From a virus, in IMG/VR virus record IMGVR_UViG_3300043788_000023, positions 96,001-160,000 of that record: a stretch of DNA of 64,000 bases. One strand, written 5' to 3'. Below, piece by piece: positions 32,332-47,160 of this stretch; the stretch's first letter is position 1; every line of letters begins with the position of its first letter. The notes under the pieces were generated by a model. It saw only the letters and a list, made by a program, of their open reading frames with translations, was not told where the DNA came from and made no database searches. The position numbers and the translations under genes were made by a program.

Positions 32332-33192
32332 ATGATTTCTTGGATTATCGCAGCAGCCGTAACCGCAGGAACAGGCGGAGGTTACGCCGTCTATCGTGCC
32401 AAAAAGAAAAAGCCGACCCCGGCACCCGTCCCGAAACCGACGCCACCGCCCCCACCAGCCCCCAAGCCCGTGCCTACACCTACTCCCAATCCGACGCCGA
32501 CTTTTGAGGATGATTTCAGCAGCGGTACCCTGTCATCAAACTGGCGTGTATCAAACTGGACAGCGCCAGGTAACGTCGCAGGTGCGAACGTCGGCACCTT
32601 CATCCCCGCAAACGTTGATCTGAGCCAAGGTTGCCTGTGTCTCAAGTTGCAGCAGACCAAGAACGCCGATGGCTCCGTGTCCTCGGTCGGTGGTGAGATT
32701 CAGCTTAACCAACTCTGCGGGTACGGCACGTACGTCTACGACATGCGTGCATCGTCAACGAGCGCCACGGTGTCCGGCGCAGGATCGGCCGTCAACGGTC
32801 AGATAAGCTCGGGATTCAACTACCTGCCGGATGCGAACTACAACTCAATCACCGAAATTGATGCGCCCGAGATTGAAGGGCAGCACCCGAACCAAATCTC
32901 CTACACGGTGTGGAACAACCAAGTGTCGGAAGACACCAGCGCTGTTCCGATTCTTTCGCCGGATGCCCAGTTCCACGAATACAAGTTCCAGTGGTTCGCT
33001 GGGAGCGTGAAGTTCTTCCTTGACGGTCAGCTTGTCTACACGGCTACGACGAACATCCCGGCGCAAGCCGCCTACATGATGTTCAATCATTGGGGAACGA
33101 ACAGCACGAACTGGGGTGGTCTTGCGACACCGGGCGTCGACCGTTTCATGTACGTGAAGAATTTTAAGTTTTACGCGAACGCTGCTGTCTGA
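32332..33192 (+). CDS. GH16 glycoside hydrolase with N-terminal anchor
   Basis: EIDAPE catalytic-like motif, FEDDFS, FHEYKFQW, FMYVKNFKFY; Pro linker. Confidence 0.8.
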   Translation: MISWIIAAAVTAGTGGGYAVYRAKKKKPTPAPVPKPTPPPPPAPKPVPTPTPNPTPTFEDDFSSGTLSSNWRVSNWTAPGNVAGANVGTFIPANVDLSQGCLCLKLQQTKNADGSVSSVGGEIQLNQLCGYGTYVYDMRASSTSATVSGAGSAVNGQISSGFNYLPDANYNSITEIDAPEIEGQHPNQISYTVWNNQVSEDTSAVPILSPDAQFHEYKFQWFAGSVKFFLDGQLVYTATTNIPAQAAYMMFNHWGTNSTNWGGLATPGVDRFMYVKNFKFYANAAV

Positions 33193-33530
33193 AGAGTCAA
33201 GGGGTGATGCTCTTTGACATGGCAGTTCTTGCAAAGAACTTCGCACTTCGCAATCTCGGCTAATATGCGTTCTTTACTCCAGCCGTTGTTGGCGGCCTGT
33301 GCTAGATTCGTGTCTTTCTGCGTTGGGTCTAAGTGGTGGAAATCTAAACAAGCCCAGTGGGTTTCTGGGCAACGATTACACTTCAGCGTCTTTAACTCAT
33401 GAAACCACGCCACAAGTTCGTTGCGGCGCTGGGCAATTTCAGCCCGACGCTTACGCTGGTTTTTAGCATACCAGCGCTTGTTAAAGCGACGATTATAGGT
33501 CTTCTTTTTTGCTTGGTTCTTGAATGGCAC
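33171..33530 (-). CDS. HNH endonuclease
   Basis: CNRC...LDFHHLDP...EIAKCEVLCKNCH. Confidence 0.85.
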   Translation of the reverse strand: MPFKNQAKKKTYNRRFNKRWYAKNQRKRRAEIAQRRNELVAWFHELKTLKCNRCPETHWACLDFHHLDPTQKDTNLAQAANNGWSKERILAEIAKCEVLCKNCHVKEHHPLTLQTAAFA

Positions 33531-33542
33531 CAAGTTTAATAC

Positions 33543-33627
33543 TGGCTGGGAAGGCAGGATTCTAACCTGCAAGCCTTGCGGCACCAGTTTCAAGGACTGG
33601 CGTGTTTAACAATTCCACCACTTCCCA
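33543..33627 (-). tRNA. Atypical class-II tRNA with UUG (Gln) anticodon and Leu-type body
   Basis: Acceptor UGGGAAG/CUUCCCA-G-CCA; loop CC-UUG-AA; long variable arm GCC-GCAA-GGC. Confidence 0.75.
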
Positions 33628-33633
33628 AGAGAT

Positions 33634-33707
33634 TGGCTGGGAGACTAGGATTCGGACCTAGACTTCTTGGTTCAGAGCCAAGCGTGTTGCCGTTACACTA
33701 TCTCCCA
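33634..33707 (-). tRNA. tRNA-Gln(CUG)
   Basis: Cloverleaf; loop CU-CUG-AA; U1-A72, G73; encoded CCA. Confidence 0.92.
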
Positions 33708-33716
33708 AAAGAAAGT

Positions 33717-33790
33717 TGGCTGGGAGACCTGGATTCGAACCAGGATAGCAGGGTCCAAAGTCCTGCGTCCTACCGTTGGACGATCTCCCA
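33717..33790 (-). tRNA. tRNA-Gln(UUG)
   Basis: Cloverleaf; loop CU-UUG-GA; encoded CCA. Confidence 0.93.
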
Positions 33791-33799
33791 AAAGAAAAT

Positions 33800-33875
33800 T
33801 GGAGCTACCAGAGGGCATCGAACCCCCAACCTCCGCATTACAGGTGCGGCGCTCTGCCAATTGAGCTATGGTAGC
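33800..33875 (-). tRNA. tRNA-Thr(UGU), C33
   Basis: Cloverleaf; loop CC-UGU-AA; U73-CCA. Confidence 0.9.
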
Positions 33876-33884
33876 GAAAATTTT

Positions 33885-34121
33885 TTACTTGCAGCAGCGC
33901 CCGTTCATCGGATGCTGGGCTTCAGGCACCGGGTAGACCGTTGCGCCCTTGTGCTCCTCGCAGGGCCAAACGTGTTCGCTTCCGTCTCGTGCCAACCACT
34001 TGATGCCGTACTGCTCCAGCGGATTGACGACCGCCTCTACCGCCAGTTCCACGTCCCCGATCACGACCTTCTTGCCCATGAGCAGGTTCATCGCCTGCTC
34101 GCCGTTCAACTTGATTTCCAT
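33885..34121 (-). CDS. Small hypothetical protein inside the tRNA operon
   Basis: 78 aa with GGAG RBS, between Thr tRNAs. Confidence 0.6.
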   Translation of the reverse strand: MEIKLNGEQAMNLLMGKKVVIGDVELAVEAVVNPLEQYGIKWLARDGSEHVWPCEEHKGATVYPVPEAQHPMNGRCCK

Positions 34122-34136
34122 TTCATCTCCCGAACT

Positions 34137-34212
34137 TGGAGCTACCGGGTGGATTCGAACCACCGACCTCCCCCTTACCAAGGGGGCATTCTACCAACTG
34201 AACTACGGCAGC
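34137..34212 (-). tRNA. tRNA-Thr(GGU)
   Basis: Cloverleaf; loop UU-GGU-AA. Confidence 0.93.
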
Positions 34213-34223
34213 AAACTTAAACT

Positions 34224-34299
34224 TGGAGCTACCGGAGGGCCTCGAACCCCCGACCTCCGCATTACGGGTGCGGCGCTCTACCAACTGAGCTACGGTAGC
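34224..34299 (-). tRNA. tRNA-Thr(CGU), C33
   Basis: Cloverleaf; loop CC-CGU-AA. Confidence 0.9.
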
Positions 34300-34310
34300 A
34301 CTACAAAAAT

Positions 34311-34385
34311 TGGTACCCATGGAGGGATTCGAACCCCCATAACACGCCTATCGAGCGTGCGTCCTAGCCGTTGGACGACACGGGT
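34311..34385 (-). tRNA. Atypical tRNA-Ile(GAU), C33
   Basis: Acceptor ACCCGUG/CAUGGGU-A-CCA; loop UC-GAU-AG; Gln/Glu-type D arm. Confidence 0.8.
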
Positions 34386-34397
34386 AAAACAAAATCG

Positions 34398-34549
34398 TGG
34401 TGGAGCGTGCGGGATTCGAACCCGCTTCGGTACCAAACGATCTCAAGCCCATCCAGCTTCGGATTTTTGCCCGTCGCCTTCAACTGCTCGCTTGCGATCC
34501 GGGGAGTCGAACCCCGCGTGAGTCGTCGCTCTAGCCTCCAAGCCGCCCC
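34398..34549 (-). ncRNA. 152-nt tRNA-Ala/tmRNA-like RNA with a second T-arm inserted in place of the anticodon loop
   Basis: GGGGCG/CGCUCC-A-CCA (G3:U70, A73); D-like arm; terminal T-arm; internal CGGGG-UUCGACU-CCCCG. Confidence 0.75.
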
Positions 34550-34558
34550 ACAGAAATT

Positions 34559-34634
34559 TGGTAGGCGCGACTGGGATCGAACCAGTGACCTCAGTCTTAT
34601 CAGGACTGCGCTCTGCCAACTGAGCTACGCGCCT
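34559..34634 (-). tRNA. tRNA-Ile(GAU)
   Basis: Canonical cloverleaf; loop CU-GAU-AA. Confidence 0.95.
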
Positions 34635-34647
34635 TCAAAACGTGCCT

Positions 34648-34685
34648 AAAAACAAAAAAGCCGACCACTTGTTGCTTGGTCGGCT
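34648..34685 (-). terminator. Attenuator terminator upstream of the tRNA operon
   Basis: AGCCGACCA/UGGUCGGCU stem plus UUUUUGUUUUU, ~14 nt before tRNA-Ile. Confidence 0.88.
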
Positions 34686-34713
34686 GCTAACGTCCTGAAT
34701 TTGCTGGGCTTAC

Positions 34714-34803
34714 TTAGTCTTTGAAGCCCTCAGACACGTCAACGGACCGACCGCATGTAATTCGTTGCGTCGTCGTAGTTCGCGTTGTAGGTGTCTGGTT
34801 CAT
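34714..34803 (-). CDS. Attenuator leader peptide MNQTPTTRTTTTQRITCGRSVDVSEGFKD
   Basis: 29 codons with 8 Thr, 2 Gln and 1 Ile in the first 16; overlaps the antiterminator strand 34736-34752. Confidence 0.82.
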   Translation of the reverse strand: MNQTPTTRTTTTQRITCGRSVDVSEGFKD

Positions 34804-34819
34804 GATCTTTTCTTTGTGT

Positions 34820-34854
34820 TGGCTGGGAGTCTCCGGTTTTACCAAAGACTCCCA
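34820..34854 (-). ncRNA. tRNA acceptor-stem minihelix, Gln-like (G-CCA end)
   Basis: UGGGAGUCU...AGACUCCCA-G-CCA; first 6 bp and discriminator match the tRNA-Gln genes. Confidence 0.7.
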
Positions 34855-34856
34855 AC

Positions 34857-34890
34857 TGGAGCCGAAACTCAGCTTTCGCTAACCTTCGGC
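34857..34890 (-). ncRNA. tRNA acceptor-stem minihelix, Thr-like (U-CCA end)
   Basis: GCCGAAG-G-UUAGC-GAAA-GCUGA-G-UUUCGGC-U-CCA (7+5 bp). Confidence 0.7.
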
Positions 34891-34892
34891 AT

Positions 34893-34926
34893 TGGTGGAG
34901 AACCTCAGATTTCGCTGCGATTCTCC
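34893..34926 (-). ncRNA. tRNA acceptor-stem minihelix (A-CCA end)
   Basis: GGAGAAUC...GGUUCUCC-A-CCA. Confidence 0.65.
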
Positions 34927-34932
34927 GTCTTG

Positions 34933-34964
34933 ATTATATTACTGGAAGTCCAGAAATATGTCAA
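34933..34964 (-). promoter_or_regulatory. Sigma70-type promoter of the minihelix/attenuator/tRNA operon
   Basis: TTGACA-N17-TAATAT, with an overlapping TATAAT. Confidence 0.8.
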
Positions 34965-34983
34965 GGTTATTTTCGCAGCGCCT

Positions 34984-35187
34984 TTAGACGGCTGTGACGC
35001 GTTCGGCTTGGAGACCCTTGGGTCCCTTGACCACTTCAAACTCAACTGCTGCGCCTTCGTCAAGGCTCTTGTAGCCCTCGCTCTGGATCGCCGAGAAATG
35101 TACGAATACATCCTCGCCAGTCTGACGGGTGATAAAGCCATAGCCCTTTGCTGCGTTAAACCACTTCACGGTACCTTGTTCTGCCAT
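34984..35187 (-). CDS. cspA: Cold-shock protein
   Basis: GTVKWFN...KGYGFI (RNP1) and DVFVHFSAI (RNP2). Confidence 0.95.
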
Positions 35188-35296
35188 TTTGTTTCCTTTG
35201 ATTGGATTGCTGAGAAAGTCTTTTGCGGGAGGGGTAAGCCTACAGCGGAGATCAGTTCTACCAGCTACTACACTATAATACCGAAAGTTGGGAAAG

Positions 35297-36198
35297 TCAA
35301 GCCTTGATTAGCGGTAGTTCCTCGGGCATGATCCCGAAGGTGTCCCACCAGAACTCGGGCTGTTTGTCCCCGTTGTTCCGAAAATAGCGTCGGCCTTCAC
35401 GCAGGGACTTCTCCATGCGACCACGTTCCCCATCCATCCAGCCCATAAACGAACATTCCACGCCCTGCGGGTTGAGACGCATGAATCGCCGGATCAGGCG
35501 ACGGCAGACGTAGTTCCTGCCCCTGTTGCCCGGCACGATGTCCTGCTCGCGGAACACGCACAGGGTGCGGAAATGGTCGCGGGACACCGGGTCTAGGTCC
35601 TGCCGGAAGAGGCTCGTCTCGTCCACGCGGCTTTTGCCTTCCACGATCTGAAGCATGCGCTCGTAGCCGAAGCCCACGTCCACGGAGTGCCCCATCGGGT
35701 TCACGAGATTGCCTACTTCAAGCCCCTCCGGCGTGAACAGTTCCGAGCAGTAGCCGCCCACGGTGCCGTCCGACCAGACGCAATCCGGGTCGTGGCACAC
35801 GGGGAAGACTCCGTTCCAGTGCCGCTCAAAGCCGGACTCCGGGTGGATGTTTACGTGGGAGATCGGGATGCCGAGGTCGCGGACGATGCCCGTCCACATG
35901 TCGCAGTGCCGCTGGTAGTCGTCCGTGCCGAAGCCGAAGCTACCGACCATCTGGAAGAAGGTCAGGTGCGTGCCGTCGCCGACCTCGTCGATGTCATTGG
36001 TGCGGACGCAGTGCTGGATGTTGCCGTGGCTGGTGCCGTCCGGTGTCTGGAACCTTGGCTTGAGTGGCTGCATCCCCGCGCTGATGAAAAGCGTGGTGGG
36101 GTCGTTCTCGGGGATTATGTTGGTGCTTGGTTCAAAGGGGAGACCGTTCTCGCTGAAGTGGCGTCGAAGGGTCTCGTTTAGGCGTCCCGCTGTGACAT
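35297..36198 (-). CDS. Minimal alanyl-tRNA synthetase-like protein (aminoacylation core only; start is out of frame)
   Basis: [39 protein letters not shown], motif 3 [13 protein letters not shown]...[21 protein letters not shown]; RBS-linked ATG at 36198 is one base out of frame. Confidence 0.82.
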
Positions 36199-36227
36199 GG
36201 CATCCTCCTACCCTATGATACCAGAAG

Positions 36228-36590
36228 TTAAGAGACTATGGCGGCTTTTCGTCTCGTCAAGTTAAAGGTTTCGCGCACACCCTTGAATGAGACTTCAACC
36301 TGTTTAGCTTGGGACAATAGAGCCTCAAGCACGCGCTCACAGGTACCAGAGTCGCCGTACAAAATCTCCCAGTGAACGTACCCGGCTTTCAACTCTGCCG
36401 AAGGACGGCAAGTTTGAAGATGGCTGACATCAGACGGGAGCAACCGAGGCAACACCACTTGCACGCTGTATACTTCAGCGCGTGAGGAGTTGGCGATAAG
36501 AGCGATGATACGCTCTTTAAGCTCAAACCGTGTTAGCTCCGGCAGTTGACCGCTCATAAGTTCCCCTGTAAAGGGTTCTAATACGCTCAT
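36228..36590 (-). CDS. Hypothetical protein
   Basis: 120 aa; ATGA-coupled to the kinase gene. Confidence 0.5.
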   Translation of the reverse strand: MSVLEPFTGELMSGQLPELTRFELKERIIALIANSSRAEVYSVQVVLPRLLPSDVSHLQTCRPSAELKAGYVHWEILYGDSGTCERVLEALLSQAKQVEVSFKGVRETFNLTRRKAAIVS

Positions 36591-37375
36591 TTCGTGCCCT
36601 CCATGGCTCTGTTAGCGAAGTCGTGCGTCGGTTGGGGAAGCTCGTACACCACGCCAGCGTTTTGAAGACTGGCTTGCAGTTGCTTGCGTGTGTCTGGTGT
36701 AAACTGCCCATGGACTTTCTGAAACCCCCGATGAAAAATGGCGGAGACGTTGTCTTGATAGGTGTCCAAAATTTGGCGACCCTGAGGCTGTAAAATCCAG
36801 TCCAGAACTTGGTTGGCTTCACCGCTTGCGTTCGCGGCGAGGGCAATCCCATAGTCAATGCCGACTAGCCCGTATGCGGGCGAATACGCCCAGTTGCCAA
36901 GGTGACGGTCGGTTACCCCGTAAGCTTTGTGGAGCCAGTGCCACTGTCCCAGTTGATCCAAGAATCGCACGCGCCATGCTTCGGTTAGCTGAATCAACCG
37001 CCATGCGTCAGGCTGCTTGTCGAGCGTTACGGCTCCGGGCACCCATACGATGACGTTTGTGTCTCGGTTTTTCAGCACCCCAATTTCGTCTATGTCAATC
37101 TTGAGGATAGGTCGGGCATTGTCAACCCGCAGCAGCATGGCAGCCTCAGCTACGAGGCGTTCATTTCGGGCAGCATTTGCATGACTCGGCGAGGCTTTGA
37201 GACTACCCACCACGCCGTTTTCGGTGAGTAACTTGAAGTGGGTGTCGTTGTTCGCCCCGGAACTGGTTATCGTGTCAGCGGCTACAGGCTCCACAGCAAC
37301 GATTCTCCCAAGCGACAGAGATAGCGCAGTTAGCTTGGCGTTGATGCTGTCCAGCAGTGTTTGGTCGAGGAGCAT
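36587..37375 (-). CDS. HipA/PI3K-like kinase-fold protein
   Basis: LK...NE, DRHLGNW catalytic loop, IDYG Mg-binding motif. Confidence 0.65.
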   Translation of the reverse strand: MLLDQTLLDSINAKLTALSLSLGRIVAVEPVAADTITSSGANNDTHFKLLTENGVVGSLKASPSHANAARNERLVAEAAMLLRVDNARPILKIDIDEIGVLKNRDTNVIVWVPGAVTLDKQPDAWRLIQLTEAWRVRFLDQLGQWHWLHKAYGVTDRHLGNWAYSPAYGLVGIDYGIALAANASGEANQVLDWILQPQGRQILDTYQDNVSAIFHRGFQKVHGQFTPDTRKQLQASLQNAGVVYELPQPTHDFANRAMEGTK

Positions 37376-37383
37376 GCCCTATT

Positions 37384-37722
37384 CTAGTCTTGAACCCTTT
37401 CCCAAGTCACGTAAACTTTTCGCGCCTTCAAACCGGATTGCTTCACGGGCTGGTAATTCACATCAACCGCCTCAACGATTCTCTCCCAATGGCAATGCTT
37501 GTTTCCAAGAGGGGCATCGTCAAAAGCACAACCGTGTGGCGCGTTGTCAGTGGGCATGATCACCGCACTTTCAGGAACATCGTAGTCTTTGGCGTACTCA
37601 GCGGCATCGGGCTGCGCCCAACTACATCCGGCTGCGCGGCAAAGCCAAAAAATAACGCCAATCAGGATGAGGCCCGACACTGTTCCAAATGGATTGCTTG
37701 AAGCCTTTTTTGTCTCAGCCAT
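37384..37722 (-). CDS. Membrane-anchored hypothetical protein
   Basis: N-terminal TM helix; PHGCAF..APLGNKHCH. Confidence 0.6.
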   Translation of the reverse strand: MAETKKASSNPFGTVSGLILIGVIFWLCRAAGCSWAQPDAAEYAKDYDVPESAVIMPTDNAPHGCAFDDAPLGNKHCHWERIVEAVDVNYQPVKQSGLKARKVYVTWERVQD

Positions 37723-37907
37723 TATTGCACCGTACCCGTGATCACGCGCCCGCCGCCGTTGATGTAGTCGGGTTGAACCACGCACGGGCCTTGGATGCAG
37801 GTGTGGTTGCCAGCAGGCACTAAGTCACCTGCGTGGTAGACGGGTTGCTGTGGGGCAGAGGAACACGCACACAGCAAAACAACTGGCAGGAGCAGCAGAC
37901 TTTTCAT
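37722..37907 (-). CDS. Small lipoprotein
   Basis: MKSLLLLPVVLLCAC lipobox; GGAGGG RBS. Confidence 0.6.
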   Translation of the reverse strand: MKSLLLLPVVLLCACSSAPQQPVYHAGDLVPAGNHTCIQGPCVVQPDYINGGGRVITGTVQ

Positions 37908-37997
37908 CGTTCCCTCCAGCCATAGTATACAGCGGGGTCTGAAGGATTGTCTACGAAGGAAAAGCGAAGAGGGCACGTCCCATAACGGAGAGTATGT

Positions 37998-38504
37998 TTA
38001 CCTGCCTGCGCGTGCTTCTTCCCTTATTTTTTCGTCTCTAAGGGCTTGGTAGATCGTTCCCACAGAGCACTGATGCTTCTTCGCAACAGCGCGATAACTC
38101 ATCCCACTTTGCCGATCTCTTTTGACCGCTTCTAAATCAAAGACTCTTTTAGGTCGTCCGGGGAAACGTCCATTTTCACGGGCTTTTTCCAGCCCGCGCT
38201 TGATTCTCTCGCCCACGGGAAGCATGCTGTACAACACTGTCAGGTCTCCGGGCTTATACACGACGACGGGCAAGCCCGCTTTCGCCAGTAATCCTGCGAC
38301 CTCGTTTTGATTGCCGTGCAGTTGTCGCCCTACCGTGGGGCCTTTTGTCTCAATCGGTCGAATAGTTAGTTCATCTGTCTCAGGGTCAGTTCGGTAGCAA
38401 AGAAAATCGGGCCAGCCGTTTCTGATAACAGTCCATCCATCCGCCTCAAGCTCTTCTTTAGCTTGTCGTTCCGCTTTGGTCAGATTCCTCGCCGTTATAG
38501 CCAT
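37998..38504 (-). CDS. VRR-NUC/PD-(D/E)XK nuclease fused to a resolvase-type HTH
   Basis: GWPD...IETKGP...Q; GRFPGRP; SYRAVAKKHQCSVGTIY. Confidence 0.65.
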   Translation of the reverse strand: MAITARNLTKAERQAKEELEADGWTVIRNGWPDFLCYRTDPETDELTIRPIETKGPTVGRQLHGNQNEVAGLLAKAGLPVVVYKPGDLTVLYSMLPVGERIKRGLEKARENGRFPGRPKRVFDLEAVKRDRQSGMSYRAVAKKHQCSVGTIYQALRDEKIREEARAGR

Positions 38505-38509
38505 CAGAT

Positions 38510-38698
38510 TTACCTTGTCTTACACACCGCGCATCTGGAATCGCTGGGCGGTATCAGGTGCTTGCAACTGCGGCACGGGTGATAGCCCAAGTCCAGCAAC
38601 GTTTTCCTGCTCCGAACGCCCCAGTCCCGGCACCACGGACACAGACCGTTTTCGTCAAGCTGGTACCAGAAATTGCGAAGTTTGGTCAGGATTCCCAT
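38510..38698 (-). CDS. Small Zn-ribbon protein
   Basis: Three CxxC motifs. Confidence 0.45.
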   Translation of the reverse strand: MGILTKLRNFWYQLDENGLCPWCRDWGVRSRKTLLDLGYHPCRSCKHLIPPSDSRCAVCKTR

Positions 38699-39171
38699 TT
38701 GCCCAGCTTGCTGCGCAGCCTTGCCTCTACAGCAGGGGGCACCAATCCCGAGACCGATCCGCCGTGGCGCACGACCGCCCGCACAAGCGACGAGCTTAGA
38801 TAGCTGTGAGCCTCGCCGGGTATCATGAATACGGTCTCTATCTCAGGGGCGAGCTTGCGGTTCATCATCGCCATCTGTAACTCGTACTCATAGTCGGACA
38901 CGGCGCGGATGCCGCGCAGCAGGATGCGTGCTCCCAAGTGTTTCGCGTAATCCACCACCAGCCCTTCAAACGTCCCCACCTCTACGTTTGGGAGATGCTT
39001 GGTGTTCTCGTGCAGCATCTCTATCCTCTCCTCCAAGGAAAAGAGGGGTGCCTTGTCGCTCTTCAAGGGCACAGCCACGTAAACTATGCCGATCTTGGAA
39101 GCCCGCGAGATCAGGTCAAGGTGCCCGTTCGTGACGGGATCGAATGTGCCCGGATATACGACGATGTTCAC
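38686..39171 (-). CDS. coaD: Phosphopantetheine adenylyltransferase
   Basis: YPGTFDPVTNGHLDLI, LRGIRAVSDYEYELQMAMMN and YLSSSLVR motifs. Confidence 0.95.
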   Translation of the reverse strand: MNIVVYPGTFDPVTNGHLDLISRASKIGIVYVAVPLKSDKAPLFSLEERIEMLHENTKHLPNVEVGTFEGLVVDYAKHLGARILLRGIRAVSDYEYELQMAMMNRKLAPEIETVFMIPGEAHSYLSSSLVRAVVRHGGSVSGLVPPAVEARLRSKLGKWES

Positions 39172-39558
39172 TTAAAAAGTTCCGATCCGCTCGCGCTTCT
39201 CCAGCCCCATCTCCACGCACCAGTCTTGCAGCACCGTGATGGCCTTGATCACCTGCTTGCGGGTGATCTTCTTGTACTTCCGGTTGTGGAAGATGTGGTC
39301 GGCTGTCTTCTCGGCGGCGCAGGCGATGGGCAGGTTCGTGTTCCAGTCCGTCTCCTTGGCGAAGCCGCAGCCGATGGTGCCGAACTTCGGGAATATCTGC
39401 ACCGCCTGGTCACGGTACAGCTTGATGCGGGCGATGAAGTAGTCCTCGTCCAGCGGGGGCGTGATTGACACCAACACACCACCCTTCGCCACGAACGTGT
39501 CTTCCGCCTTGGCGAAGCTTGCGTTGACCTCGATGACTATCTTCTTACTCGTGCTCAT
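39172..39558 (-). CDS. Hypothetical protein
   Basis: 128 aa; strong phage-type codon bias. Confidence 0.6.
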   Translation of the reverse strand: MSTSKKIVIEVNASFAKAEDTFVAKGGVLVSITPPLDEDYFIARIKLYRDQAVQIFPKFGTIGCGFAKETDWNTNLPIACAAEKTADHIFHNRKYKKITRKQVIKAITVLQDWCVEMGLEKRERIGTF

Positions 39559-40231
39559 ACTCTTCCTTCTCAACCTTGCCCTTACGGTTGACCGTGATCT
39601 TCATGTGGTCGCCGAACATGGTCTCAAGGTCTTCCTCGTCAAAATTCCCGAGGAACTTGGAGACCTTGTCCGTCGCCTTGTCAAACGCCTTGCTGTACTC
39701 CTCGTGGGACTTGACCTTCACGCCGTCCACGGTGATTGCACCCTTCTCGTCAATGGCGACGGTCTTGCCGTCGATGCTCATGGCGGAAATCTTCCCGCCC
39801 TTCATGCCGTCGAACATGCGCTTGTAGTCGTCCTGCGTCTTGATCTCGTCGCCGTCCTCATTGGTGAGGTCGCCGCTGTTCTCGTCGTACGTGATCTCCT
39901 GCCCGTCCAAGACCAGCGTGACGGAGGGGTAGTCGGTGTGGGCGCTGAACTCGCAGACGTCCCCGTCGTTCCAGTAGGGCGTGTACTGGGTCCAGCCGAA
40001 CGTGATGATGTCCGGGTTCTCCTCAAAGAACTCCTCCGCCATCTCAGCGAAGGCGCTCTTCGCCGTGGTCTCCATCGCCTTTTTGGCTTCGGCGATCTTC
40101 TTCTTCAGTTCTTGGTACTTCTTCGCTGCTGCGGTTGCCATGATGGGTTTCTCCTCTGATTTTGGTTCCGGTTCCGGCATGTAGTGCGGGTGTCCGACTG
40201 GCGGCTTGTTCAGTCCATTCATCGGGTCCAT
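39545..40231 (-). CDS. Conserved phage hypothetical protein
   Basis: WTQYTPYWNDGDVCEFS...MFGDH...VTVNR motif. Confidence 0.7.
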   Translation of the reverse strand: MDPMNGLNKPPVGHPHYMPEPEPKSEEKPIMATAAAKKYQELKKKIAEAKKAMETTAKSAFAEMAEEFFEENPDIITFGWTQYTPYWNDGDVCEFSAHTDYPSVTLVLDGQEITYDENSGDLTNEDGDEIKTQDDYKRMFDGMKGGKISAMSIDGKTVAIDEKGAITVDGVKVKSHEEYSKAFDKATDKVSKFLGNFDEEDLETMFGDHMKITVNRKGKVEKEEYEHE

Positions 40232-40232
40232 G

Positions 40233-40619
40233 TCAGTCCACCGTTTTCCTTTTCCTCAAAAGTCTCTTCGCTGACGGAGGCGGCTCGCCTCGCCCGGTTA
40301 CCATCCATTCCTTGACTTCCATCTCTTGGAGGAAGTCCTGCGCGGAGGGGATGAACCTCCCCCGGAAATCCTCAAGCACGTGCTGCTCGCCGATGTCCCG
40401 CACCGAGATCGTCATGCCGTCGCTGTTCTTCAGCGTGACCCCGAAAACCAGTTCAAGGATCGTGCCCACGAACCATGCGTTGTGGGTCAGCGTCCTGTGG
40501 CGGCTGTCCGCCATCGTGCCCTTGGAGGAGTCCATGAGGTTGTGAATCTCAATGTAGTCCTCGGGCTTACCACCAAACTTTTTGGCGCTGCTCTCTGCGT
40601 GAATCCAAGGCTTCGCCAT
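40233..40619 (-). CDS. DUF6915-like protein
   Basis: PWIHAESSAKKFGG..EDY..IH..MDSSK....D.RHR...H...GEQHVLED. Confidence 0.7.
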   Translation of the reverse strand: MAKPWIHAESSAKKFGGKPEDYIEIHNLMDSSKGTMADSRHRTLTHNAWFVGTILELVFGVTLKNSDGMTISVRDIGEQHVLEDFRGRFIPSAQDFLQEMEVKEWMVTGRGEPPPSAKRLLRKRKTVD

Positions 40620-41116
40620 CAGAGGTCATCGTCGCTTTCAACCTCTGGAAATGGGTAATCTCCCAAGTTCGTCGGGCTGTGATCAATGGTCACACCGTGG
40701 TTGTGACCCCAAGAAAGCTTGACCTCCAAGTCCGGTTCGCTTCCCCAGAACTGGAGCACCGTGCCGCCGCTGACTTGGTTCAGATGCCACCCAAAAGGCT
40801 TGCGTGACTTCTCCACCATCGCTTGGTATTCCTTGTACGCCTTCGTCGCTGCTTCGTGTTCGGCTTTCAGTTCGCCCACGGTCTTCGTGTCGGGCGTCGC
40901 GGACGTGATTGTTGCGCCATAGCCAGGAGACGGGGCAGGAGTTAATTTCTTGAATTCGTGTTCGGTGTTCAGGTAGGACTCTTGTGCCTGCTCGCAGAGG
41001 GCGTCAAGCTCTTCCTCTGACATGTCAATCGGCACCCAGACGTAGGTGTACCCGGTGCCGTGCTTCCAGCTTATCGGTTCACCGCAGCGCCAGTGCTCAA
41101 TCCTTGCAAGCTTCAT
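40619..41116 (-). CDS. Hypothetical protein
   Basis: GAGGAG RBS; TGATG coupling to the next gene. Confidence 0.6.
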   Translation of the reverse strand: MKLARIEHWRCGEPISWKHGTGYTYVWVPIDMSEEELDALCEQAQESYLNTEHEFKKLTPAPSPGYGATITSATPDTKTVGELKAEHEAATKAYKEYQAMVEKSRKPFGWHLNQVSGGTVLQFWGSEPDLEVKLSWGHNHGVTIDHSPTNLGDYPFPEVESDDDL

Positions 41117-41117
41117 G

Positions 41118-41417
41118 TCAGTTCTCCTCAACGATGTCAAGCATGCGTCCCGCAGCGGAAAGACGCCCACGCATATAGTTCACTGCGAAGAAAAGTTCCT
41201 CGGCTGCTTGTTGGGAGAAGGCTTGTGCGAAGATGCGACCGTCAGACTCGTAGATGTTCCACTGGTTGTTGTACATCCCGTCGTCAACGAACTCCATCCG
41301 AGTTAGAGGCAAGTAGATCATGGGAGAAAGCGCAAGGGAGGCTGCGCAGCCTCCCCCACATAGCTCACCAGTGCTCACCAGTACTGTCAAACCCTGACCC
41401 TCATCGGAGACACTCAC
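41118..41417 (-). CDS. Hypothetical protein
   Basis: ORF fills the operon gap; start uncertain. Confidence 0.4.
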   Translation of the reverse strand: MSVSDEGQGLTVLVSTGELCGGGCAASLALSPMIYLPLTRMEFVDDGMYNNQWNIYESDGRIFAQAFSQQAAEELFFAVNYMRGRLSAAGRMLDIVEEN

Positions 41418-41529
41418 GTGAGCTTCAACTCTCCGAACTATTGGCGGATTCTATTAGACTGGACTGTCGCTCTGGACTGTCGCCAAGTTCATAATACATC
41501 TACTGGGGGATTTTGCAACATGCGGCCGC

Positions 41530-42285
41530 TTAAGACTGCACAGCCCGCCACATGCTTTTTAGCGCACGGCTGACTTCAGCACGAGCTTCCGGTGTCCAAT
41601 GTGCTGCGAGAGCTTTGGACATGCGCTTGCGCACACGGTCAGGAGCCTTGTCCCAAACCGCGGTCATCTGTTGGCTGATTCTTTCACGGTCTTCAGGGGA
41701 CCAACGTGCGTCCTTGAAGGAACGTCCGTAGTTATGCTTGGGTCCGTGCCCCTTGCCTCGGTAAATGCCGTGAGCACGTGCTATCCTCGCAACGTATAAA
41801 GTGGGCTTGTTTAGGTCACGACCGATGTCAGAGTAGCTTTGATCCGGGTGCTTACGCACATATTCAGCGACCTCGGCGTTGCGCTGCCTAGATTCTTCGG
41901 TCACGTTTGTGCGGCGCTGATTGCTGCGGTACACGACCTGACCGACCACGTGCTTCGGCAACCCGAACGCTTCGGAGATTTCTATGTAGGTCATCTCAGG
42001 GTGCGACTGCACGTAGCGCAGGATGCGGGTATCACGCTTCTGTTGGAGTTCCTTGGCGGATAGGACTCGGGGCACTCGTGGTTTGGGGGTTCTCCACTCC
42101 AAGTGGGATGTCCCGGTGAGACCAGCGGCACGGGCTTTCTTGAAGTTCCGGCGCTTCGCTGCAAAATAGACGGAGTTCATAGAACGCCCGAAGTGCGCCC
42201 CGATCTCACGCCAAGTAAGCTCCGGGTGTTCAGCAGCGTACTTCACAACTTCATCGTTGGATTGTTTGGAACTGTACTTGCTCAT
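41530..42285 (-). CDS. Basic DNA-binding protein with three HTH repeats and NUMOD3-like helices
   Basis: Three Y..xHP..(T/S)(W/Y)..I repeats; W(S/T)PE.R repeats. Confidence 0.65.
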   Translation of the reverse strand: MSKYSSKQSNDEVVKYAAEHPELTWREIGAHFGRSMNSVYFAAKRRNFKKARAAGLTGTSHLEWRTPKPRVPRVLSAKELQQKRDTRILRYVQSHPEMTYIEISEAFGLPKHVVGQVVYRSNQRRTNVTEESRQRNAEVAEYVRKHPDQSYSDIGRDLNKPTLYVARIARAHGIYRGKGHGPKHNYGRSFKDARWSPEDRERISQQMTAVWDKAPDRVRKRMSKALAAHWTPEARAEVSRALKSMWRAVQS

Positions 42286-42305
42286 GCTTGCTAATACTTG
42301 AAAAT

Positions 42306-42390
42306 TGGTACGCGGGGGAGGAATCGAACCTCCGACCTCTCCTCATCAAAAGGGGAGCGCTCTGGTACAACCCAACTGAGCTACCCGCGT
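42306..42390 (-). tRNA. Atypical tRNA, anticodon undetermined (expanded D loop and anticodon arm)
   Basis: Acceptor ACGCGGG/CCCGCGU-A-CCA; normal T arm; anticodon region CUCCCC-UUUUGAU-GAGGAG. Confidence 0.65.
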
Positions 42391-42392
42391 AT

Positions 42393-42497
42393 TGGAGCGC
42401 CTGGGGGGATTTGAACCCCCGACCAACGGATTATTTCTCCGCTGCTCTTGCGAGGTCGGTTTTAGAGACCGCCGCTCTACCACTGAGCTACAGGCGC
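42393..42497 (-). tRNA. Amber-suppressor tRNA(CUA), 105 nt, with an extra anticodon-like arm
   Basis: GCGCCUG/CAGGCGC-U-CCA; loop CU-CUA-AA; inserted GCGGA-GAAAUAA-UCCGU arm. Confidence 0.72.
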
Positions 42498-42502
42498 AAA
42501 CT

Positions 42503-42577
42503 TGGCACCCCCGGTGGGATTTTTACCCACATGCGCGGCTTTAGAGGCCACTGCTCTTGCTGTTGAGCTACGGGAGT
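42503..42577 (-). tRNA. Amber-suppressor tRNA(CUA) with degenerate D and T loops
   Basis: ACUCCCG/CGGGGGU-G-CCA; loop CU-CUA-AA; T loop UAAAAAU. Confidence 0.78.
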
Positions 42578-42703
42578 ATGGTGTACGCATCTTATCGCAC
42601 CCACGAGGGCGTAAGGGAGACTTTCTTTCCGGGTGCGCGGCGTACCTGCGATTTTTCCCGTCAGTCGTCTCTGCGAAATATCGTTCGGTGTCTAATACTG
42701 GTG

Positions 42704-42782
42704 TGGTGGGGTCGGCGGGATTTGAACCCGGCGATCAGGGTTTTAGAGACCCCTGCTTTGGGCCAGACTAAGCTACGACCCC
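42704..42782 (-). tRNA. Amber-suppressor tRNA(CUA)
   Basis: GGGGUCG/CGACCCC-A-CCA; loop CU-CUA-AA; T loop UUCAAAU. Confidence 0.85.
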
Positions 42783-42788
42783 GCACCA

Positions 42789-43394
42789 TCAGTATACAGC
42801 CACCTCTTTCAAACTGGCTACCAGCTTCTTGCCGATCTTGTCAATCTGCTTCCACTTGATCTTGAACGTGTCGCTGTCAAGCTGATGCAGCCATGACGCG
42901 TTTGAGTGAATCTCCGCAAGACCCGCAAGGATCAGTGACGGAGCCTCGGGACGCTTGATGAACTCGTCAATGGCGGTTGCGCCCTTGATCGTGTGGATGT
43001 CCATGTCCGCCCGAATCAGGTCGCCGATCTGCTCGTCTTCCGGTGACCAGTGATCGTGCCCGTCAAGTTGTATAGCAGCATGCTTCATCCACGTCTCGTA
43101 ACTGATCTGCGCGTGGTTCGTAAAATGCTGCTTGCCGTCCTCGTCCACAGTGCGACAGAACGGCTTGCCGCAGTCGTGGTAGATCAGGTAGTGCTGCATG
43201 ATGTTCAGAGGAAGCTGGTGCGGCTTCATCGCTGCTGCCCACTCGGGCATGCGCCACTTGAGCTTTGGCTCCGGGCTGATGATGTCCAGATAGCGGGCGA
43301 ATACGTCCATCCCGTGATCCAGCACACTCATTCCGGGGAACTGCTCACACCTCTTCATCGGTTCTTCCAGCTTACACAGATTGGTCTACAGCAT
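42789..43394 (-). CDS. HD-domain phosphohydrolase with an in-frame TAG at codon 3
   Basis: SVLDHG, YHDCGKP, HFTNHA, DMDIH; GAGGAGG-N6-ATG CTG TAG in frame with the ORF. Confidence 0.78.
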
Positions 43395-43572
43395 TGTCTT
43401 CCTCCTCGGCGCAGAACCCGCAGTGCGGGCACGTGACGCCATATAGAATTCCCCAGCAATACGACTTGCCACACTTTTCGCAAGCAAGTCTGTGGGAGCC
43501 GGGGTTTGAGCTTCCACAGCAACAAAGTTTTGTCACCACTGGTGACGGCATAAACACGTCAAGCCAACTCAT
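43372..43572 (-). CDS. Small Cys-rich Zn-ribbon protein
   Basis: CEKC and CPHC; TGATG coupling. Confidence 0.5.
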   Translation of the reverse strand: MSWLDVFMPSPVVTKLCCCGSSNPGSHRLACEKCGKSYCWGILYGVTCPHCGFCAEEEDNAVDQSV

Positions 43573-44237
43573 CAGACATCCTCCTCGGTGCTGCCCTGCT
43601 TGCGGACGCCCCATCCTCCGCGCCAGTATACCTCAAGGGTGTCATCCCACATCGCCTCACGGCGGTCGTTCCAACTGGGCCAGACCTCGTACTCCTTCGC
43701 GCCGATCCCGAGGATGCCACCGTGCTTTTCTTTCTTCGGCGGCAAATCCTTGACTGGGTCTTTGGGGCTGAGACCAAGCTTCCCGTAGGCGTAGTCCGCA
43801 GCGTGGCGGCATTCTTCACCGCCTGGACGAATCTCATCTGCGTGCCTTTTCACCCAGCGGTGGAAGGCGTCCATCTCAACCTTCAGTTCCACGTCGCGGC
43901 TCGCCTTGCGGGTCTCGTCATCGCTCTTGCGGTAGCGCTCGGCGGAGTCCGAGTTGCCCACTTCCGAGTAGTCAATCTCGGCGTCGGGGGTATCCCACAG
44001 CAGATCGGTGATGCTCATTGGCGAGATCACGACCTTTGATCCTTTGCTGGTGTACTTACCGCCCACGAGATCGTAGTAGGGCTTCTTCGCCGGGTCACGC
44101 TTCAGCACTTGCAGGCGTCCGTCCCAGTACGCAGGCTCGGTGGTCACCGTGAAGATGTCCACGTTCTCCACGCAGCACTCAAGCTCACCGCTCGGATCGG
44201 CTTCCTGTAATTCCGCTATTAAGTCCTTGGTTTTCAT
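43572..44237 (-). CDS. Hypothetical protein
   Basis: MKTKDLIAELQEADPSGE...PAYWDG; ATGA coupling to the Pth2-like gene. Confidence 0.7.
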   Translation of the reverse strand: MKTKDLIAELQEADPSGELECCVENVDIFTVTTEPAYWDGRLQVLKRDPAKKPYYDLVGGKYTSKGSKVVISPMSITDLLWDTPDAEIDYSEVGNSDSAERYRKSDDETRKASRDVELKVEMDAFHRWVKRHADEIRPGGEECRHAADYAYGKLGLSPKDPVKDLPPKKEKHGGILGIGAKEYEVWPSWNDRREAMWDDTLEVYWRGGWGVRKQGSTEEDV

Positions 44238-44602
44238 TGTATTGCTCCTGTTGCGTCCGGCTCGTGCCAGAGGCGGTAATTGGACAGCGCCCGGCGCTGC
44301 ACGCCCTCAATGGGGACGGTGGCAACGGCAGACAGACCCATATTGAAGTCCGGCTCGTAGAATACCTGATGACCGATGTCGTGGGAACGCAGCTTCTCAA
44401 TGACACGGAAGAGCGCCGCCTTGTCGGGCACACCAATGGTGATGCACGATGGGGTCACGTCTAAATCTTGGGGTTGAGACAAACGGCGGGCGACCTCAAA
44501 GGTCGCGTGATTGGACTGAACCAACTGTTGCGCAAGGCTGATGTCCTGCCTCACGAACACGTAAAAGTAGGGGTGTTGCTGGGAAACCTAGTGCTGTGAC
44601 AT
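44234..44602 (-). CDS. Pth2-like peptidyl-tRNA hydrolase with an in-frame TAG at codon 5
   Basis: YFYVFVRQDISLAQQLVQSNHA...FYEPD...LSAVAT.P; ATG TCA CAG CAC TAG in frame; GGAGG upstream. Confidence 0.75.
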
Positions 44603-44655
44603 ATCCTTTGAGCCTCCATGACTCAATACTGCTAAAGTGGTCAGTAGTCAAATAA

Positions 44656-44817
44656 ATTGTCGGCGCGACGAACGGGAAATCGAACCCGAACTCCATACGG
44701 TGAGGAACCAACCGCCGCTCGCTTCGGCTGACTCATCCGGCTAGATGACGCCTCCACGATTATCGCTATCCGGGGAATTCGAACCCCGCTCTCAGCCACG
44801 AGAGGTCGCCCGACGAT
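44656..44817 (-). ncRNA. ~160-nt structured RNA with two T-arm hairpins (related to 34398..34549)
   Basis: Closing helix GUCGG-GCGAC/GUCGC-G-CCGAC; CGGGG-UUCGAAU-UCCCCG and CGGG-UUCGAUU-UCCCG; own promoter. Confidence 0.68.
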
Positions 44818-44833
44818 AACTCCAACAGTGCAT

Positions 44834-44862
44834 ATTATCTCACAGATCGGCGGCTTTGTCAA
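44834..44862 (-). promoter_or_regulatory. Sigma70-type promoter of the ncRNA/Pth2/HD/suppressor-tRNA operon
   Basis: TTGACA-N17-GATAAT with extended -10 TG. Confidence 0.8.
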
Positions 44863-45046
44863 CAGCATCTTTTACGAAACTAAGCACCTCATCGTAGTGC
44901 TCAGCGCACAACCAGCCCTGAGCCAGCTTGATAGACGCGGGCTTGTCGCAGAGGATCGGATCGCCGTCTTCCCCCGGCTCCGTGTGGAAATCCACGATGA
45001 ACTGGCAGTTGTGCAAAACTGGCTCCAGCCGTGGAGTTCCGTCCAT
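44840..45046 (-). CDS. Small Cys-rich protein
   Basis: CQF...CDKPASIK...WLCAEHYD; paralog of 14049..14279. Confidence 0.55.
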   Translation of the reverse strand: MDGTPRLEPVLHNCQFIVDFHTEPGEDGDPILCDKPASIKLAQGWLCAEHYDEVLSFVKDAVDKAADL

Positions 45047-45054
45047 GTCACCAC

Positions 45055-45314
45055 GGCTCAGGGGATTTTCCGGCGCTCATCCTCAGCATTGTTCCCGACG
45101 CCAAGGTTTGCCTATTCTTCTTTCGGCGCAATCGCACCGCTGTCCCCGAGTTGAAGAACGTCCAAGCAGCGGGGGTCAATTCCCCCTTCAAGACAAGCGC
45201 AGGTGAGTTTTACGTCACCTCTCCCCGCAAGCCCTGTCACACTTGGCAAAGTCTAGTCTCCCGTAGGTTTACTTTCGGAACCGATGACGTCTGCTGCCCA
45301 CGGACACTGGAGCC
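45055..45314 (-). ncRNA. Candidate ~260-nt structured ncRNA
   Basis: No credible ORF; TG-G-TATCAT -10 just upstream; GGCUC/GAGCC closing stem; several hairpins. Confidence 0.4.
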
Positions 45315-45332
45315 TTCTGTATGATACCACCA

Positions 45333-45361
45333 GAAACAAAAAAGCCCAGCCGAAGCTGGGC
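45333..45361 (-). terminator. tmRNA terminator
   Basis: GCCCAGC-UUCG-GCUGGGC plus UUUUUUGUUU. Confidence 0.85.
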
Positions 45362-45652
45362 GAATTTTGTGGTGTTGAGGATCAGAGACACCGTCTCTGG
45401 GCACGCAGGTTTTTAAGCTGCGGCTGCCATTGCCATTGCCTTTGGAGCAGTGACGTTTAGTTGTTTCCATCCTGATTTTCGAGGGTATGGTACCTCGGGT
45501 CGCTAGCTCCGTCCTCGCACGTCTTCCGTCGAAACCGATTACCCCCGCAGTGGTGGAGGTAGAGGGAATTGAACCCTCGTCCGAAAAGACTGTCTGGTGC
45601 CTTTTACCCCCACACTTACCCTTCGGCAGTCTACAGGGGCTTACGACCATCT
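45362..45652 (-). ncRNA. ssrA: Circularly permuted (two-piece) tmRNA; tag (A)VTAPKAMAMAAAA*
   Basis: T-arm + UACCUCC-A-CCA (ending 45551) precedes GGGGGUA...GGUUUCGAC (starting 45546); G3:U70; tag ORF 45454-45413. Confidence 0.88.
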
Positions 45653-45658
45653 AACCTA

Positions 45659-45687
45659 AGAATACCGTAGTTCTGGTACTTTGTCAA
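45659..45687 (-). promoter_or_regulatory. tmRNA promoter
   Basis: TTGACA-N17-TATTCT. Confidence 0.75.
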
Positions 45688-45689
45688 GT

Positions 45690-46511
45690 TCAGCGTCCAC
45701 GCATGATACGGCGGTATGCGCTCTGGGACTTGCGGTCTTCCTTAATCATTTCCCGAACTTCCTCGTAGGCGTCATCTGCCTCCCTGAAGTTCCCTTCATC
45801 AAACCTCTTCAGTTCGGCGTCAAGGTCAAGACCAAGTTCGTCTATCCACGCCAGCAGTTTCTTGCGGCGGTAGGTCTTCATCCTCTTGACCTCAGCGTCC
45901 GTCATCCCCGGTGAGGGTGCGGGCTTGTCCACGTACTTCAGGTCGTCCGGCAGGTACAGCGCTGTCACTGGTCTCTTCCAGTCGTAAGCGGGTTCCCAAG
46001 TCGGGTCTTTTTCTTTTTCACGGCGGGGTCGTTCAGACGGTTCAAAGAAGATGTCTGGTAGGTCGTCGTCAGTGATTTCAGGACGTGGCTTTTCTTCTGC
46101 CGCGGTCTTGGCCCCTTCCAGAAGTTCAATCTCGTTCTCAAGCTCAACCCTACGGAGGTCGGGGTTCTGCCATTCGTTCAGGTATTCTTCGTCCTGCACC
46201 AGTGCGAACGCAATCTGACGTGCTCGGTCACGATATATCTTTGAAACGTTGGAGCCGTGCGTGACGAGGAACACGACGATTCCGAGGTAGCGATCCGGGT
46301 CGTCTCCTCCACTCATTGCGTCAAGCTCTTTGATGAGCACAGGAAGCTGCTTGTCAGATATAGGCTCGTCGAAGCCTTTTCCCCGTGGGTCTTGCGGGCG
46401 GTGCTTGTCTAGGATGTCATGGACGCTGTCGCTGTCGTAGGACTTGTCGCCCCACTGTCCGGCAAACTTACCTTGGCTCCCACGCCGAGTCCTGCTCAAC
46501 GCTGGCGACAT
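45690..46511 (-). CDS. Acidic hypothetical protein (possibly a +1 frameshift continuation of 46468..47160)
   Basis: Coding-like from GKFAGQWGDKSYDSD onward; start uncertain. Confidence 0.55.
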   Translation of the reverse strand: MSPALSRTRRGSQGKFAGQWGDKSYDSDSVHDILDKHRPQDPRGKGFDEPISDKQLPVLIKELDAMSGGDDPDRYLGIVVFLVTHGSNVSKIYRDRARQIAFALVQDEEYLNEWQNPDLRRVELENEIELLEGAKTAAEEKPRPEITDDDLPDIFFEPSERPRREKEKDPTWEPAYDWKRPVTALYLPDDLKYVDKPAPSPGMTDAEVKRMKTYRRKKLLAWIDELGLDLDAELKRFDEGNFREADDAYEEVREMIKEDRKSQSAYRRIMRGR

Positions 46512-47160
46512 AGTTCGGGGAGTGCAGTTCCCGTTCGTTCTGCTGTGTCGGGTCGTGCGTCTCCGCCCACATTCCCCAGAGTCCCTTGTGCGACCTGATC
46601 TGCTCGGCATACTCCGCCTTGACGATTTCTTCGGCGACGTGCATCTCTGGCTCGGTCGGAAAGTTAAACATGGAAACTTCGTCGTCTTCGTAGTGCGTGA
46701 CTTCAAAGTCTTTCATTCCAGCTTTGGCGAGATGAAACGCTACAGTTCCGGCAGCCTTCATCGGGACGGCAAAGCTGAAACGTGGGGGTCTCCCGGCGAA
46801 CTTCTTTGCGGTGCGTTGGTGTCCTATGATACCCATACTCTTCAGGAAGTCCTCATCGGACTTCTTCTCGTCCTCGGGGCTGAGCGTTGGCGGTTCCTCT
46901 TCCTTCGGCTCTACGATAGTCTTAAGCGCTTCTGAATCTGTCCAGTGTGCGGAGCGGGAGCCGTCCTCGGTAATGACTTGGTAGAACGGTTCCTCTGTTT
47001 CACGGTCTACGTCAATCTTGACCTTGATGTCGCTGTAGGGGCTGCCCCACACCTCTTCCCCGGTGCCGGATGGGAAAAACCCGTTAGCGCCGAGGATTTC
47101 ACGCCAGTCGTCATCCGGGTACTTGCCCATATCTTCTGCTTTCTTTAGGAGATCGCTCAT
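46468..47160 (-). CDS. Acidic hypothetical protein (possibly virion-associated)
   Basis: 230 aa with GAGG RBS; K/R-x-A motifs. Confidence 0.6.
   Translation of the reverse strand: MSDLLKKAEDMGKYPDDDWREILGANGFFPSGTGEEVWGSPYSDIKVKIDVDRETEEPFYQVITEDGSRSAHWTDSEALKTIVEPKEEEPPTLSPEDEKKSDEDFLKSMGIIGHQRTAKKFAGRPPRFSFAVPMKAAGTVAFHLAKAGMKDFEVTHYEDDEVSMFNFPTEPEMHVAEEIVKAEYAEQIRSHKGLWGMWAETHDPTQQNERELHSPNYVASVEQDSAWEPR

Follow-up and report, generated by a model that had tools for sequence, protein, structure and literature searches.

Leader-peptide attenuators can be multivalent. The thrL leader carries Thr and Ile codons, ilvL of the ilvGMEDA operon carries Ile, Leu and Val codons, and trpL, hisL, leuL and pheL belong to the same group. 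In Escherichia coli, leader-peptide attenuation also controls an aminoacyl-tRNA synthetase operon, pheST, through the pheM leader. The transfer RNA (tRNA) genes of phages are generally viewed either as constitutive aids to codon usage or as substitutes for tRNAs that host defences have destroyed. Here we analyzed a stretch of 64,000 nucleotides (nt), hereafter the window, that covers positions 96,001 to 160,000 of the IMG/VR virus record IMGVR_UViG_3300043788_000023, a sequence of 169.6 kilobases (kb). On its minus strand, a short leader open reading frame (ORF) and an intrinsic terminator precede an array of Ile, Thr and Gln tRNA genes. Our analysis indicates that a ribosome-mediated (leader-peptide) transcription attenuator probably gates this array and would adjust tRNA transcription to the speed of decoding. 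Attenuators of this class are textbook knowledge; what is new is the target, tRNA genes, together with the barcode at isoacceptor level and the occurrence in a phage. Full-text literature searches returned no description of tRNA genes under leader-peptide attenuation.

The locus resembles thrL and ilvL in its short leader enriched in sensed codons and in its mutually exclusive 1:2, 2:3 and 3:4 folds around an intrinsic terminator. As in those systems, a stalled ribosome would free the antiterminator, and one leader is proposed to sense several amino acids. Unlike thrL and ilvL, which control biosynthetic enzymes, the phage leader controls tRNA genes. Its sensed codons (Thr, Gln and Ile) correspond to the anticodon set of the array isoacceptor by isoacceptor, and the product would feed back on the sensor. 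It is also phage-encoded and has no sequence similarity to those leaders, and its stop codon lies in the hairpin that caps the antiterminator. The regulated array consists of eight tRNA genes, one tRNA-like element and small ORFs, and contains no biosynthetic or synthetase gene of the kind found behind classical attenuators. The pheST system is similar in that attenuation is applied to a translation component handling the sensed amino acid, whereas pheM senses a single amino acid, controls a protein gene and is chromosomal. T-box riboswitches (RF00230) are likewise terminator/antiterminator switches that report on a specific tRNA pool. A T-box, however, works without translation, its specifier codon and T-box sequence binding the uncharged tRNA itself, whereas the phage leader is a codon-periodic ORF.

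A first-pass annotation, made from the sequence alone, had described a promoter, a 29-codon leader ORF, a terminator and tRNA genes in this order, and all of these elements were confirmed on the minus strand, with the positions and sequence readings given there (Table 1).

Table 1 Features of the attenuator locus and its surroundings in the window, and leader units of two other phages.
Feature	Position	Strand	Description	Basis
Sigma-70-like promoter	34964-34936	minus	TTGACA (34964-34959), 17-nt spacer, TAATAT (34941-34936)	10/12 matches
Hairpins of the 5' untranslated region	34820-34926	minus	H1 34926-34897, H2 34890-34861, H3 34854-34824	Folding
Leader ORF	34803-34714	minus	29 codons + TAA; MNQTPTTRTTTTQRITCGRSVDVSEGFKD	ATG start
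Region 1	34756-34797	minus	5' arm of hairpin A, sensing codons; Thr run (codons 9-12) at 34779-34768	Folding
Region 2	34726-34755	minus	3' arm of hairpin A; pairs with region 1 or region 3	Folding, covariation
Hairpin B	34706-34729	minus	Loop holds the leader stop codon (34716-34714); tip of the antiterminator	Folding
Region 3	34673-34698	minus	Spacer and terminator 5' arm; pairs with region 2 to give the antiterminator	Folding, covariation
Intrinsic terminator	34685-34647	minus	GC-rich stem of 9 base pairs (34685-34677 with 34667-34659), 9-nt loop, U-tract UUUUUUGUUUUU	Folding
tRNA array	34634-33543	minus	tRNA-Ile(GAU), tRNA-like element, Ile(GAU), Thr(CGU), Thr(GGU), 79-amino-acid ORF, Thr(UGU), Gln(UUG), Gln(CUG), Gln(UUG)	tRNAs confirmed by Rfam
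tRNA-like element of the array	34515-34398	minus	Normal T-arm, ACCA end	Match of transfer-messenger RNA (tmRNA) type, 23.8 bits, under the Rfam gathering score
Cold-shock protein gene	35187-34984	minus	5' of the promoter
Gene similar to the alanyl-tRNA synthetase (AlaRS) core	36073-35297	minus	258 amino acids; 5' neighbour of the cold-shock gene
Second tRNA block	42306-42782	minus	Two CUA tRNAs (amber suppressors), 102-nt tRNA with insertion (42396-42497), tRNA-Glu(CUC)
Permuted (two-piece type) tmRNA gene	45322-45644	minus	Tag peptide VTAPKAMAMAAAA
L018 leader 1			Peptide MNFTHTSERLSLYSLSLCDSGWSEGCV; then Leu x5, Cys, Ser x4, Asp, Glu x2
L018 leader 2			Peptide MISHSTKRFATTQPAAQPWGVGNCIMVRS; then Asn, Gln x2, Gly, Thr x3, His, Ala x2, Phe, Pro x3, Arg(ACG)
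L018 leader 3			Peptide MKLRSKHVVSIIRGKRMWGGVRV; then Trp, Ile(UAU), Lys x2, Arg(UCU), Arg(CCG), Val, Ile(GAU), Gly(UCC)
CcrBL10 gp078 unit			Then Pro, Pro, Thr, Lys, Leu x3, His, Ala
CcrBL10 unannotated ORF unit			31 codons, MSKSYRQFVQIQVVRNFRAGRSRMDDGGTFI, terminator of 13 base pairs; then Val, Ile, Ile, Val, Gln, Gln, Ile, Arg, Arg

We evaluated the proposal of the first-pass annotation that the leader codons are read by the downstream tRNAs. The leader contains eight Thr codons (ACA, ACG and ACU), two Gln codons (CAG and CAA) and one Ile codon (AUU), and for each anticodon of the array the leader includes a cognate codon. Among codons 3-17, 11 of 15 are read by the array's tRNAs, against a background of 16.4%, which is the share of array-read codons in the genome's long ORFs (P = 1.6e-6). 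The match was frame-specific, since the other two frames hold only two array-read codons each within the 16 codons after the ATG of the window leader. The stretch is A/C-rich and its +1 frame is open as well, so that an open frame carries no weight by itself.

Homologous leaders were collected by look-ups in IMG/VR and on contigs through homologs of the AlaRS-like protein encoded near the window leader, a pattern scan of metagenomes, and a pattern scan of viral sequences. These yielded 14 distinct leaders. The metagenome pattern had the outer stem of hairpin A as its sole anchor, did not include the ATG, and gave nine leaders; L014, L015 and L016 were reached by synteny alone, through the AlaRS-like neighbour. 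The carriers are phages of soil, peat and freshwater with sizes of about 170-460 kb, on contigs of up to 463 kb. The leader family (MNQTPTTRTTTTQRIT...) is accompanied by the Ile-Thr-Gln array, and the carriers also hold the small AlaRS-like gene (mini-AlaRS), amber-suppressor tRNAs and the permuted tmRNA. The array stands behind the leader in the relatives, including L014, L015 and L016. The AlaRS-like homolog loci P0054, P0071, P0096, P0099 and P0115 have no Ile-Thr-Gln array, and two of them look bacterial. A blastn search of the region against GenBank phages returned matches to tRNA and cold-shock protein genes only, and no relative of the leader.

All 14 leaders have the ATG, a frame of 28-31 codons, a stop codon within the hairpin B loop, and a terminator. 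Indels inside the ORF were only -3 and +3 nt, and those in the downstream non-coding part were of arbitrary length. Across the leaders, the 16 codons after the ATG include 11-13 array-read codons in frame 0, against one or two in the other frames. Thr and Arg codons vary synonymously at the third position. In codon columns 6-16, eight variant states are synonymous and seven are non-synonymous, and all seven of the latter are exchanges among Thr, Gln and Ile. Free variation is seen in the 3' half of the ORF, which encodes the C-terminal half of the peptide, and the N-terminal half has been rewritten across lineages within one alphabet (MKQTQTTRTTTTQRIITG..., MKQTQTTRTTTTQRITIT..., MKQTTTTRTTQQRITIR... 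and MKQTQQTRITTQRTTTC...). This pattern of substitution indicates that codon identity in the leader is under selection.

We predicted the secondary structures of the leader RNA. The terminator ends approximately 14 nt before the first tRNA gene (12-13 nt from its last U), and it was missed by a simple terminator scanner because of its 9-nt loop. The full leader folds into hairpin A (regions 1:2), hairpin B and the terminator. An alternative helix between 34752-34736 and 34693-34678 had been proposed to sequester the 5' arm of the terminator. This helix proved to be the core of a larger antiterminator (34755-34673, 83 nt), which is the minimum-energy fold of that stretch (-34.7 kcal/mol, z = -4.3); alone it is weak, with 6 base pairs and 4-7 base pairs across an internal loop. 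The z-scores of the antiterminator in four lineages were -4.3, -6.3, -5.9 and -3.7. When transcripts were cut before the 3' arm of the terminator, every lineage folded the long helix between region 2 and the spacer with the terminator 5' arm, enclosing hairpin B and the stop codon. In L004, L015, L016 and L028, shifts or compensating changes of the pairs preserve the stem of hairpin B.

In the alignment of the 14 sequences, pairing reached 83% for the terminator state and 88% for the antiterminator state, compared with 23-43% in slid-partner controls, and RNAalifold itself selected the region 2:3 pairs. Four sequences carry changes at both partners of alignment columns 69:148 and 70:147 (UA to CG and CG to GC), and these double changes track a shift of the terminator stem from GCCGACC to GCCGCC. 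Both RNA states, hairpin A with the terminator on one side and the antiterminator on the other, are conserved in this alignment with compensatory changes. No homolog had kept the terminator and lost the ORF and antiterminator; the ORF is kept in 14/14, the antiterminator is conserved with covariation, and the attenuator architecture proposed earlier is supported by these relatives.

Folding with and without the leader masked, as the first-pass annotation had suggested, gave a switch in silico. In six window-type leaders with the long terminator loop, the terminator probability was 0.96 without a mask and 0.02-0.3 when nt 1 to 36-48 were masked, which corresponds to a ribosome with its A-site at about codons 9-12, the Thr run. 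It returned to 0.96 once the mask reached at least 54 nt. Among the other leaders of the GCCGACC type, the drop in L008, L010 and L011, to 0.09-0.46, was confined to mask 36, with recovery to 0.56-0.82 at masks 42-48, and L005 remained at 0.76 or above under masking. The switch was reproduced by only 1 of 200 dinucleotide shuffles of nt 49-118.

From these data we infer that the leader is translated and that read-through depends on ribosome stalling. Transcription would start from the promoter upstream of the leader, and a ribosome would translate the 29 codons as RNA polymerase nears the terminator. With fast decoding of the Thr, Gln and Ile codons, the ribosome would reach the end of the leader, whose stop codon occupies the hairpin B loop in the middle of the antiterminator. 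Region 2 would then be covered or re-paired with region 1 as hairpin A, the terminator would form, and transcription would end shortly before the first tRNA gene. If decoding is slow, the ribosome would stall on the Thr run or on nearby Thr, Gln or Ile codons and cover region 1. Region 2 would then pair with the spacer and the terminator 5' arm to form the long antiterminator, and the polymerase would continue into the tRNA genes. As the products are the tRNAs that read the leader codons, the circuit would constitute negative feedback on decoding capacity.

The first-pass annotation had also suggested a check of related phages for leader codons that co-vary with the downstream tRNA set, and such co-variation was observed in two phages with unrelated leaders. 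Phage L018, a more distant one, encodes an AlaRS-like protein with 64% identity to that of the window, and 37 tRNAs were found in the stretch examined. Three terminators lie directly 5' of its tRNA blocks, and a short ORF with an ATG ends 28-34 nt upstream of each. The codon-by-block table of the three leaders, [[15,7,3],[4,16,7],[3,4,13]], departs from independence (chi-square 26.8, p = 2e-5). The cultured Caulobacter phage CcrBL10 (L029, MH588544) has two leader units, at 5531-5626 and 3629-3766, and its codon table, [[22,0],[3,10]], gave a Fisher p of 1.6e-6. In the unit with the unannotated ORF, the terminator probability responded to masking, going from 1.00 to 0.04 and back to 1.00. The design recurs in unrelated leader families, those of the window clade, L018 and CcrBL10. 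A 20-codon ORF of CcrBL10 located 5' of Glu/Asp tRNAs was not counted as a leader, as its hairpin is weak, with 4 base pairs. The gap at 4120-4323 of CcrBL10 seems to contain unannotated tRNA-like genes.

Several observations weigh against control of the array by leader translation and stalling. Close relatives are approximately 95% identical in nucleotides across the leader, and many of the 14 sequences therefore do not count as independent; about five lineages (the window type, L004, L028, L015 and L016) supply the variation that is decisive. In L004, L028, L015 and L016, the equilibrium terminator probability is at least 0.6 under every mask. The argument for these four lineages is one of kinetics and folding order because their antiterminator wins only on transcripts cut before the 3' arm of the terminator. 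Truncated RNA without a mask already has the antiterminator as its minimum-energy fold, which makes the default state without translation uncertain. Leader codons 8 and 14 (34782-34780 and 34764-34762) encode Arg in 14/14 leaders, and most leaders have CGA at both. At 0.19% of codons, CGA is used less than any other Arg codon in the genome, and these two invariant rare codons have no matching tRNA in the array; they might be built-in slow sites. A canonical Shine-Dalgarno sequence is absent before the ATG, where only the A-rich stretch AAAGAAAAGAUC occurs. The promoter of L028 abuts the leader ATG, which implies a near-leaderless messenger RNA; leader b of CcrBL10 also looks near-leaderless, and leader 3 of L018 has GAGGAA five nt 5' of its ATG. 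The second tRNA block of the window directly follows a protein gene, without a leader or terminator. Finally, the RNA evidence consists of contigs only, at low depth.

We weighed whether the RNA switch is flipped by a trans-acting binder of region 1, such as a protein, a T-box-like tRNA or a small RNA, with the ORF being incidental. The nucleotide conservation of the leader, which exceeds the coding need, and the lack of a Shine-Dalgarno sequence fit this explanation, and two mutually exclusive covarying structures would suit any riboswitch-like element. However, an Rfam search of 34300-35100 at E values up to 10 found no T-box and no other known family on the leader. The 3-nt periodicity, the frame-specific excess of array-read codons, the in-frame indels, the third-position variation of Thr and Arg codons and the confinement of non-synonymous changes to Thr, Gln and Ile all speak for reading by a ribosome rather than a binder. 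A sequence-specific binder also leaves unexplained why the unrelated leaders of L018 and CcrBL10 match their own tRNA blocks by codon. We regard this explanation as very unlikely. In the same Rfam search, weak matches of Qrr and PhrS on the leader were judged to be chance.

Metatranscriptome contigs covered the leader in four soil or sediment runs from four studies, at 34678-35083, 34692-34898, 34692-35028 and 34695-34847. All four contig sets end at 34678-34695, the foot of the terminator, although contigs cannot show the strand, true ends or levels of an RNA. They give a weak hint that a terminated leader RNA exists. These ends are also what a discrete RNA of approximately 280 nt would give, if the unit from promoter to terminator were a stand-alone gene for a small RNA or a 29-amino-acid peptide, and the tRNAs arose from constitutive leak-through or upstream transcripts, unregulated by decoding speed. 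The strong folding of the whole unit (z = -7.15) and the strength of the terminator agree with such a gene. On the other hand, the gap of approximately 14 nt between the U-tract and the first tRNA is too short for a promoter, and the tRNAs thus depend on read-through. A conserved and compensated antiterminator over the terminator 5' arm has no role in a plain terminated gene. The C-terminal half of the peptide is unconserved, and the N-terminal half is held only to a three-amino-acid alphabet that equals the downstream tRNA set. A stand-alone gene is thus highly improbable.

The promoter and the leader ORF are separated by three hairpins, H1-H3, each followed by an NCCA sequence (ACCA, UCCA and GCCA). 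Their stems covary among the window, L001 and L015, with conserved apical loops, and H1 and H2 are paralogs that share a conserved apical loop, CGAAAU/G. H3 reproduces the acceptor stem of the tRNA-Gln of the array. Three copies occur in the window type and in L015, one in L016 and none in L028; in L004, H1-H3 are replaced by an unrelated hairpin-forming sequence, and the ORF, antiterminator and terminator are still present. The hairpins are not needed for the switch, as their copy number is 3, 1 or 0 among the homologs, and judging from this distribution they form an optional module outside the switch core. They could be minihelix-like processing or decoy elements. That they instead act like nut/put sites, with a phage factor or the RNA itself making the polymerase resistant to a terminator that serves as a timing gate, is suggested by the paralogy, conserved loops and covarying stems of hairpins lying between promoter and terminator, but is scarcely credible given their variable number, their absence from L028 and replacement in L004 (both of which keep the ORF-antiterminator-terminator module), and the codon matching and region 2:3 covariation that it leaves unexplained.

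If a leader-peptide attenuator gates the array, phages measure the decoding speed of specific codons and feed this reading back onto transcription of the matching tRNAs. Leader-peptide attenuation would then extend from metabolic genes to the decoding machinery, and tRNA genes would gain a loop from product to sensor. We tentatively suggest that codon-barcoded attenuators could be a general modular device by which tRNA-rich phages gauge decoding per codon and switch on the matching tRNA block. It would then serve as a counter-measure induced by cleavage or depletion of host tRNAs through anticodon nucleases or similar defences, or else by shutdown of the host. The trigger may alternatively be amino-acid starvation, or plain supply-and-demand feedback on the phage's own tRNAs. 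As a readable barcode, the leader would predict the tRNAs of its operon and aid the annotation of tRNA operon boundaries in metagenomic phages. The occurrence of the design in a cultured Caulobacter phage makes it testable at the bench with ordinary reporter and starvation assays.

Genes from approximately 33171 to 48000 in the window are all on the minus strand. The -35 hexamer and the promoter spacer are conserved in the relatives. The spacer contains a palindrome, CTGGAcTTCCAG, at 34942-34953 on the minus strand, which is kept in the relatives (TCTGGAC...CAG) and could be an operator site. The 258-amino-acid product of the gene at 35297-36073 matches only the catalytic core of class II AlaRS, and 313 homologs were found at E <= 1e-10. 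Many of these are on large phage contigs beside tRNA arrays, and some are on bacterial-looking contigs, amid genes with Planctomycetota-type domains. The tRNA-like element of the array lies approximately 800 nt from this mini-AlaRS gene. The relatives too carry two or three CUA tRNAs, and the permuted tmRNA is also present in them.

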